Positions 58,171 through 59,537 of a stretch of DNA of 64,000 nucleotides are shown here, one piece after another (the stretch's first letter is position 1; the number at the start of each line of letters is the position of its first letter). This stretch comes from Escherichia phage WPEC6. The DNA lies in the sequence record PV763039.1, one strand, 5' to 3'. The notes beneath the pieces are model-generated. The model did no database searches. It was not told where the DNA came from and worked only from the letters and a program-made list of their open reading frames with translations. Made by a program: the position numbers and the translations under genes.

Positions 58171-58608
58171 TTATAACAGATCTAATGCTTTCAACTCTTC
58201 TTTCAATGATTCAGGCAGGTCACATTCAACGTCAATCAGAGATAACAAGTGACCAACAATGCCTTCCAGATGTTGATACTCACTATAACTTATAAATTCA
58301 GAATTGTAAACAGAAACATCCTTAGTTTCTTTCACAACTTCCCCCGCAGACACGCACATAAAAAAGTTACGCTCTCCGCGAGCTAACAATATCTCCCAAC
58401 TTCTGAACGGATACTGTCCAGCTTCAATAATATCCCCGCTGTCCAATAAAGTCAATGAGCAAACAGAGCCTGATTCACTAACATCTTCGACGCGGAAACA
58501 AGACCCTTCAATCAAAGCTGCCATTTTGAAATTTTCATCAGAGATCATAGAGAAAGCTTCACATGCAGCTTTGCTTTTGAAACAGTAAACAGCATTAACT
58601 TTAAACAT
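58171..58608 (-). CDS. paralog family B member (MFKV...)
   Basis: ORF track 145 aa; N-terminus similar to the two upstream genes. Confidence 0.5.
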   Translation of the reverse strand: MFKVNAVYCFKSKAACEAFSMISDENFKMAALIEGSCFRVEDVSESGSVCSLTLLDSGDIIEAGQYPFRSWEILLARGERNFFMCVSAGEVVKETKDVSVYNSEFISYSEYQHLEGIVGHLLSLIDVECDLPESLKEELKALDLL

Positions 58609-58620
58609 AACATTCCCCTT

Positions 58621-59076
58621 TTAAACAAAAGATACGCCGATGGTAGCAACAACCAAACGTTTATAAACTTCAACCTCTTCTGTAGGATTAGCCATTTTAT
58701 GCTCTGCTGCTTCTTTCAAAGCTTCTTCATAACTTTCAAATCCAGAAATACAGGTGTCATCAGTCATTACAACATACCACTCTTCTTTTGTTGTATCAAC
58801 AGGTTCTTCTTGGGGTTTTCCACGACCACCACGAATACCACCGTCAACAAAATAATCTATATGAGCAGAATTGATTATGTAACGATCCCCATCACTAGCA
58901 GTGATAACACCGTCTCTCCCTATCACAACAATTGACAAGATATTACCATTTGCATCAGTGCTCAACACCTCGAAAAAATTCTCTCCAATGATAGCAGCAA
59001 TACTGTTATCAAAGGTAGAATATAATCGCATATAATCTTCATCCTGGAAACGGTAGACATGACCTTCTTTGAACAT
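58621..59076 (-). CDS. paralog family B member
   Basis: ORF track 151 aa; EEWYVVMTDDTCISGFESYEEALKEA domain shared with 59082..59537. Confidence 0.55.
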   Translation of the reverse strand: MFKEGHVYRFQDEDYMRLYSTFDNSIAAIIGENFFEVLSTDANGNILSIVVIGRDGVITASDGDRYIINSAHIDYFVDGGIRGGRGKPQEEPVDTTKEEWYVVMTDDTCISGFESYEEALKEAAEHKMANPTEEVEVYKRLVVATIGVSFV

Positions 59077-59081
59077 TGGCT

Positions 59082-59537
59082 TTACTCCTTATCAATAGTG
59101 ATTGTGGCGTTTGCTACTGCAACACGAGCGTAAATCTCAACCGTCTTCGACGGATAATCCTTCTTAGCTTTTGTAGCGACTTCAGAAGCTTTTTCAAAAC
59201 TAGAACAAACATCTACACACTCTGATCCTACGATCACAACATGCCATTGTGGTTCTGCTTTACCCATTGTTTCCTCCTTTACTTCTTCAAAATATTTAAA
59301 TTCTTCGTTATCAATCAAATAAGTATATGAATTAAACCCTGGGGTAACACCTGCTGTATAAAGGGTACCATTAATATAAAACTCAAGAACATGACCATAC
59401 TTATCATCTGTATTCATAACTTTGAAAACTTCGTTTCCAATCGCTTGGCAAACAGCAATATTTGCTTTGTCATGTGTTGCCATATCTCCTTGGTCAGCAA
59501 CGCTTTTGAATTTATAAGTAAACCCTACTTTAAACAT
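59082..59537 (-). CDS. paralog family B member
   Basis: ORF track 151 aa; EPQWHVVIVGSECVDVCSSFEKASEVA domain. Confidence 0.55.
   Translation of the reverse strand: MFKVGFTYKFKSVADQGDMATHDKANIAVCQAIGNEVFKVMNTDDKYGHVLEFYINGTLYTAGVTPGFNSYTYLIDNEEFKYFEEVKEETMGKAEPQWHVVIVGSECVDVCSSFEKASEVATKAKKDYPSKTVEIYARVAVANATITIDKE

Follow-up and report, generated by a model that had tools for sequence, protein, structure and literature searches.

Three consecutive minus-strand genes of an Escherichia phage, here called gA, gB and gC, are, with a probability of roughly 80%, diverged members of the GoF/Frd.2/MotB.1 protein family of phage T4, carried in a plastic slot of barrel-linker-module cassettes. The analysis covered a 64,000-nucleotide stretch of Escherichia phage WPEC6 (PV763039.1), referred to below as the window. 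[quoted passage not shown] 2025, PMC12152347). The N-terminus of these proteins is a five-stranded barrel whose nearest PDB relatives are FeoA-type SH3 domains, and it is followed by a flexible linker and a variable C-terminal domain. The proteins are expressed early (prereplicatively), are abundant and can be dispensed with in the laboratory, and their wild-type function is unknown (PMC12152347).

Organization of the gA-gB-gC locus

The window belongs to Phapecoctavirus, subfamily Stephanstirmvirinae. Its segment 57800-60100 is 100% identical to Escherichia phages WPEC1, WPEC2 and WPEC4, and many phAPEC8-like phages match this segment at 95-97% identity. As a sequence-only reading of the window had correctly stated, the locus holds three consecutive minus-strand ORFs of 145-151 aa. 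The features were as follows.

59082-59537, minus strand: gA, ORF of 151 aa, starting MFKVGFTYKF
59274-59537, minus strand: N-terminal FeoA/SH3-like barrel of gA, aa 1-88
59091-59255, minus strand: C-terminal beta-beta-alpha-beta domain of gA, aa 95-149
59544-59550, minus strand: Shine-Dalgarno sequence of gA, AGAGGAG, from sequence reading
58621-59076, minus strand: gB, ORF of 151 aa, starting MFKEGHVYRF
59085-59090, minus strand: Shine-Dalgarno sequence of gB, AAGGAG, made up by the final gA codons
58171-58608, minus strand: gC, ORF of 145 aa, starting MFKVNAVYCF
58174-58296, minus strand: helical C-terminal module of gC, aa 105-145
58615-58620, minus strand: Shine-Dalgarno sequence of gC, AAGGGG, from junction comparison

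Each gene has its own Shine-Dalgarno sequence in front of it, and the intergenic gaps are 5 nt (gA-gB, with the gB ATG 5 nt past the gA stop codon) and 12 nt (gB-gC). The short first gap, together with the position of the gB Shine-Dalgarno sequence inside the end of gA, suggests translational coupling of the two genes. The three genes lie within a long run of small minus-strand genes, which is presumed to be an early, host-takeover region; their early expression is read solely from gene organization. A promoter and terminator scan around the three genes gave results no better than shuffles, and Rfam found nothing inside or near them.

Other features of the window were recorded as well. Eleven tRNA genes are clustered at 25702-27624 on the plus strand (Rfam tRNA, 39-72 bits). 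Two small minus-strand genes at 55893-56207 and 60513-60881 are mutual paralogues (BLASTP E = 6e-11, 30% identity) with GLC.CL and WVKD motifs in common, and they form a second duplicated family, lying on either side of the GoF-like array in the same minus-strand block. At 60794-61929, the WPEC1 record keeps annotating minus-strand genes past about 61.1 kb, beyond which the ORF list gives plus-strand ORFs, and the GC skew is positive from 62 kb. The deposited WPEC1 annotation past about 61.1 kb may be on the wrong strand.

gA, gB and gC are old paralogues with a common N-terminal domain

By BLASTP, gA matched gB over the full length (E = 5e-16) and gC over the N-terminal 85 aa only (E = 6e-5), and the gB-gC comparison gave E = 0.11. 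The N-terminal 90 residues and the C-terminal parts were then scored separately by Smith-Waterman alignment against 2000 shuffles, a test that had been set beforehand. The N-domain z scores were 11.6 (gA-gB), 8.7 (gA-gC) and 7.6 (gB-gC), and for these pairs the observed score was reached by 0 of 2000 shuffles. The C-domains of gA and gB, about 55 residues long, were related at z = 12.4, and the C-terminus of gC showed no relation to either of them (z = -0.4 and 0.07). These results upheld the paralogy, with an N-terminal domain of about 88 residues common to all three proteins and a C-terminal domain confined to two of the three, as had been proposed from the sequence. The proposed start motif MFK[VE]..Y.F captured the common start with one dot too few, and its correct form is MFK[VE]...Y.F. 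At the DNA level, ATGTTYAAAG-N11-TAY occurs three times in the 64-kb window, each time at the start of gA, gB or gC, with 0.01 occurrences expected.

An N-domain HMM was made from 34 family members, comprising the window genes and matches from an exhaustive HMMER search. It scored gA at 99, gB at 76 and gC at 96 bits, and a C-domain HMM scored gA and gB at 87 bits each. The N-domain HMM found no further family members among the 360 window ORFs, the best other ORF (11442-12017) reaching 10 bits across 20 residues. Compared with their orthologues, the three genes had pN/pS values of 0-0.54 and were thereby shown, at the level of substitutions, to be under purifying selection. There is next to no probability that the similarity is a matter of chance or composition, or that the ORFs are not genes. 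Only the low pairwise identity of the proteins (24-29%) speaks for this, and it is refuted by the shuffles (z 7.6-12.4), by the profile scores (76-99 bits versus 10) and by the pN/pS values; the confident AlphaFold2 models of gA and gC with the same fold and the conservation of the family genes in 54-71 phage records also stand against it.

The DNA similarity among the paralogues amounts to about 26 nt at two gene starts, covering the start codon and ribosome-binding site, and nothing more, and thus the duplication must be old. At the protein level the copies are 26-29% identical. In addition, each N-domain is nearer to proteins of other phages than to its array neighbours. The best outside match of the gB N-domain was P0021 (66 bits, with gA at 35), that of gA was P0044 (42 bits, with gB at 35), and that of gC was P0025 (67 bits). 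Since the three N-domains are not mutual nearest relatives, the array is, on this comparison, ancient or assembled by exchange. Local tandem duplication, as first proposed, is therefore right in that the genes are tandem paralogues and wrong if taken as a recent event, which is ruled out by the 26-nt limit of the DNA repeat and the divergence of the proteins.

[quoted passage not shown]

The exhaustive HMMER search of 1.84 billion representatives returned 38 proteins at E <= 1e-3. With the N-domain HMM, T4 GoF scored 49 bits, Frd.2 28 bits and MotB.1 a marginal 14 bits. The PHROG families gave a consistent picture. The best match of gA was phrog_3710 (3.6e-16), which gB matched at 8.6e-33, and gC matched phrog_22975 over its full length (3.5e-100). 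All three proteins also matched phrog_622, gA at 6.5e-10 and gC at a similar level (about 7e-10), and this family holds T4 GoF (5e-38) and Frd.2 (4e-46). T4 GoF in turn matched phrog_3710, the family of gA and gB, at 8e-12, so that the PHROG matches are reciprocal. Matches to the goF-labelled phrog_13003 and phrog_2980 ('goF mRNA metabolism modulator') were weak (5e-4 to 0.08). phrog_3710, phrog_622 and phrog_22975 are all annotated 'unknown function'; PHROG divides the GoF-like family by C-terminal module without assigning it a function.

Other databases gave less. The Pfam family FRD2 (PF03197) matched gA at 15.4 bits (E 0.032), under its gathering threshold of 29 bits, and 5 of 26 family members matched it with a best E of 0.007; the other Pfam matches, DUF2782 and DUF7336, were sub-threshold. 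The three proteins had no match in NCBIfam. Word-indexed homologue searches returned close relatives only (5, 16 and 10 matches), a PDB sequence search returned designed proteins and weak noise only, and an IMG/VR scan with the alignment A1 pattern gave 17 stretches, none of them confirmed.

In the GenBank record LR597654, the gB orthologue is annotated 'goF mRNA metabolism modulator of RB69' and the gC orthologue 'RNA metabolism moderator of RB51'. In PQ433349, the pair of genes covered by the gC match bears goF-type names; these are apparently the orthologues of gC and of a further family gene, gD, described below. The goF link is thus not new; it was already present in two GenBank records and only unexploited. 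The sequence-only reading had called the function of the genes unknown, and this holds for the wild-type biochemical role of the family, although the N-domain can now be assigned by homology to T4 GoF/Frd.2/MotB.1.

As in the T4 proteins, gA, gB and gC have a homologous N-terminal beta-barrel of about 85-90 aa followed by a flexible acidic linker and a variable C-terminal domain, and in both groups the proteins are small and acidic, their genes lie among clustered small accessory genes, and a single genome carries several paralogues. In contrast to the T4 family, the Phapecoctavirus paralogues are strictly tandem, vary from one to four between near-identical phages, and have C-terminal modules unlike those of T4. 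GoF residues D25 and G84 correspond to H22 and K81 of gA in a hand alignment and are not conserved. In sequence, fold and architecture, gA-gB-gC show the features by which the family is defined. Occurrence in Tevenvirinae, as the family was described, does not apply to a Phapecoctavirus window, and these members widen the range of the family rather than being excluded from it.

Predicted structures show a FeoA/SH3-like barrel with different C-terminal modules

Structure prediction had been suggested as a check, and the AlphaFold2 models of gA (pLDDT 90.7) and gC (pLDDT 80 overall) gave the same N-terminal barrel. In the gA model, the barrel spans residues 1-86, with two helices after strand 1, and a beta-beta-alpha-beta domain spans residues 99-137; the linker between them is less confident (mean pLDDT 69 in block 91-100). 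In the gC model, the barrel has a pLDDT of 93-96, residues 89-104 are disordered (pLDDT below 50), and the C-terminal helices 108-125 and 133-141 are of low confidence (pLDDT 50-72). The architecture of gB is the two-domain type of gA, with a Gly/Arg-rich, acidic linker. Each protein is accordingly built from a conserved FeoA/SH3-like barrel of about 88 residues, an acidic flexible linker and a small exchangeable C-terminal module. In gA and gB this module is a beta-beta-alpha-beta domain, whereas gC has a helical pair.

The PDB neighbours of the gA model were the same as those published for GoF, namely FeoA and the SH3 domains of IdeR/ScaR. Foldseek searches of viral models (BFVD) with gA and gC returned T4-like phage proteins by the dozen, in many cases more than one from the same phage. 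The matches of the gC model included a phage VR7 protein named 'GoF putative mRNA metabolism modulator' (E 2.8e-6). Fold matches of the gA/gB C-domain (ClpS and designed proteins) were short and generic.

It is extremely unlikely that such fold matches give the function directly, with the N-domain acting as a FeoA-like FeoB partner or metal-regulator SH3 domain, or the gA/gB C-domain as a ClpS-like adaptor. None of the three proteins matched Pfam FeoA (PF04023) or ClpS (PF02617) even at E <= 1, and identity to the FeoA- and ClpS-type fold matches was 11-20%. The ClpS match spans only about half of ClpS, idealised designed beta-alpha-beta proteins match the gA/gB C-domain equally well, and the C-domain shows neither the full ClpS fold with its N-degron pocket nor a sequence match. 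Metal-ligand histidines are absent from GoF (PMC12152347). Unlike the C-terminal SH3-like domains of the FeoA/DtxR family (CATH 2.30.30.90), the domain described here is found in a phage context, without a Pfam match and without a metal-ligand motif.

The slot gains, loses and recombines members among close relatives

Copy number in related phages had been another suggested check, and the slot was scanned with the domain HMMs in 13 of them. The results showed one to four GoF-like genes per phage, in the following orders.

A-B-C: this window (WPEC1), tuntematon
A-B-D-C: ESCO37, DIJ07P1
B-D-C: AV125, phAPEC8_ev052
B-C: 3A1_SA_NWU, ZCKP1, ESCO5
D-C: ukendt
C only: nepoznato
B/D chimera and C: phAPEC8
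Two different N+C genes, without gC: phiWec179, which is more divergent

The additional gene gD, absent from the window, encodes a 261-aa protein in which a single C-domain of the gA/gB type comes after two tandem GoF-type barrels. It lies between gB and gC in ESCO37, DIJ07P1, AV125 and ev052, and before gC in ukendt. This variation in array content occurs among phages whose flanks are 95-100% identical. gA was present at >=95% identity in 23 of the 54 phage records matched by the gA query, and gC in 12 of 12 close relatives examined, being absent only from the divergent phiWec179. Further ORFs in these relatives were as follows.

L003:2777-3562, minus strand: gD of ESCO37
L006:3001-3450, plus strand: chimeric gene phAPEC8_0024 of phAPEC8
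L013:3265-3477 (ZCKP1) and L019:4912-5124 (phiWec179), plus strand: 70-aa ORF with the gC module

Comparison of the junctions showed how these arrays differ. The Shine-Dalgarno sequence of gC plus ATGTTTAAAGT recurs unchanged in front of gD in gD-bearing phages, and in phages without gD the upstream spacer of gD plus ATGTTTAAAGT is joined to the remainder of gC. The boundary of gD presence or absence thus falls inside the shared start sequence, the ATGTTYAAAG start motif. In phAPEC8_0024, nt 1-269 of gB are fused to the last 192 nt of gD, and the junction is an 11-nt overlap, CAAGAAGAACC, in the linker, corresponding to the QEEP linker codons; to judge by this junction, the gene is a natural domain swap by deletion. 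The junctions of gains, losses and the chimera lie at microhomologies of 10-11 nt. The 70-aa ORF of ZCKP1 and phiWec179 consists of the gC helical module alone (46 bits) behind an unrelated short N-terminus, and the matching slot of the window (57620-57862, minus strand) holds a different, hydrophobic ORF.

Since natural variants without gA, gB or gD exist, these members are, by the evidence of the genomes compared, individually dispensable. Members are lost, gained or fused where recombination acts on short stretches that they have in common, namely the ATGTTYAAAG start and the QEEP linker codons. Taken as genome comparison, these data show an old modular cassette array whose membership changes between close relatives by gain, loss and recombination.

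Small early genes in T4-type hyperplastic regions are shuffled between close relatives at short conserved sequences near their starts. The unit of that shuffling is a promoter/stem-loop cassette, whereas the junctions seen here fall within the coding sequence, at its start (ATGTTYAAAG) and at a linker motif that the paralogues share. The T4-like Proteus phage PM2 carries a tandem family pair near gene 30 (DNA ligase), with both proteins starting MFELNKWYK:

L016:7545-7991 and L016:8001-8456, plus strand: tandem pair of Proteus phage PM2

Tandem expansion is therefore not peculiar to Phapecoctavirus. The same N+C architecture was found in the T4-like phages Proteus PM2 and Serratia 92A1.

Some records encountered in these searches deserve mention. 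The metagenomic protein P0048 (141 aa) has a C-terminal stretch of about 90 residues near-identical to the end of gD, covering the tail of the second barrel and the C-domain, behind an unrelated N-terminus, and by its sequence it may be another recombinant of the GoF-like family. MG065650 (Campylobacter phage B15) and OP562383 (Acinetobacter phage ABPW7) are about 97% identical to E. coli phapecoctaviruses here, and OR584014 (Pseudomonas phage PsgM04F) encodes a gB-like protein with 89% identity to the gB-like protein of E. coli phage phiWec179. The host labels of B15, ABPW7 and PsgM04F look doubtful.

Possible roles of the GoF-like proteins

The net charge of gA, gB and gC is -7 to -15 and their pI is 4.4-5.0, with every domain acidic; the N-domains have a pI of 4.6-4.9 and a net bulk charge of -4.5 to -5.3. 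The core of Hfq has a pI of about 10. This acidity, as a matter of inference only, favours protein-binding modulators of host takeover over Hfq-like RNA chaperones. Our proposal, which is tentative, is that gA, gB and gC may be abundant, dispensable early proteins that bind components of the host machinery and so tune transcription or the metabolism of host or phage mRNA. The barrel would be a docking or scaffold module common to all members, with partner specificity set by the C-terminal module. The protein-binding part of the proposal draws on the charge of the proteins and on what SH3-like folds generally do, and the analogy with GoF transfers little mechanism.

It is very unlikely that the three proteins are instead true LSm/Hfq-like RNA chaperones, with rings of barrels that bind RNA directly and stabilise transcripts. 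The N-terminal domain has been named an LSm-like fold, GoF and MotB.1 run as monomer and dimer, and the half-life of a reporter mRNA was lengthened by GoF(D25Y) (PMC12152347). The small, bent, five-stranded antiparallel barrel is itself a likeness to Hfq and Sm/LSm proteins, as is the effect of GoF(D25Y) on mRNA stability. However, the predicted topology is FeoA-like, with two helices between strands 1 and 2, and the N-terminal helix and five contiguous strands that define the Sm fold are absent from the model. Neither the fold topology and nearest structural neighbours nor a basic RNA-binding character of Sm/LSm/Hfq proteins was found, the proteins being acidic in every domain. Moreover, reporter RNA was little affected, and not stabilised, by the wild-type forms of GoF and MotB.1; stabilisation was seen only with GoF(D25Y), which has one acidic residue fewer, and it did not depend on Hfq (PMC12152347). 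AlphaFold3 predictions for GoF and MotB.1 contained no confident multimers (PMC12152347). Direct Hfq-like RNA binding by gA, gB and gC thus seems less likely than protein binding.

The plasticity of the slot invites another explanation, in which gA, gB and gC are diversifying accessory factors for counter-defence or host range, each neutralising a different defence or restriction component. Copy-number variation between near-identical phages would be explained in this way, and the location in a small accessory gene block, the acidic proteins, the modular design of an N-domain with variable C-domains, and the tandem expansion also seen in T4-like phages (Proteus PM2) fit with it, as does the retention of gC alone in all 12 close relatives. 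We consider it unlikely, however. PADLOC gave one weak, chance-level match (E 0.037), and no link to a known anti-defence family was found. The pN/pS values are below 1, and diversifying selection was not seen in the few available substitutions. In addition, the GoF phenotype (suppression of Rho alleles, mRNA level), which is known for GoF mutants and not for the wild-type proteins, points to gene expression rather than defence.

An extension of the tentative protein-binding proposal can also be imagined, though it is quite unlikely. The slot could be a 'plug-and-play' adaptor array, in which the barrel attaches to a single host hub, such as the machinery of transcription termination or RNA decay to which goF genetics points, while each type of C-module recruits or blocks its own partners. 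Barrels and modules would be reshuffled in the phage population through microhomology at the shared gene start and the linker. Such an array is suggested by the chimera of phAPEC8, by gD with its two barrels and by the helical module of gC standing alone in ZCKP1 and phiWec179. If this were true, nature would have made a combinatorial effector system here, one that could help to find out what the GoF family binds.

Significance

The gA-gB-gC array reveals no new kind of system; it is real, but as a feature fairly ordinary. Through it, three 'hypothetical proteins' of phAPEC8-like phages, which are in therapeutic use, can be assigned to the GoF/Frd.2/MotB.1 family, at the strength given above. 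It also shows that the range of this family is not limited to T4-like phages and that the barrel-linker-module design is kept outside them. The natural arrays, with one to four genes and a chimera, are ready-made deletion and domain-swap variants for tests of function.
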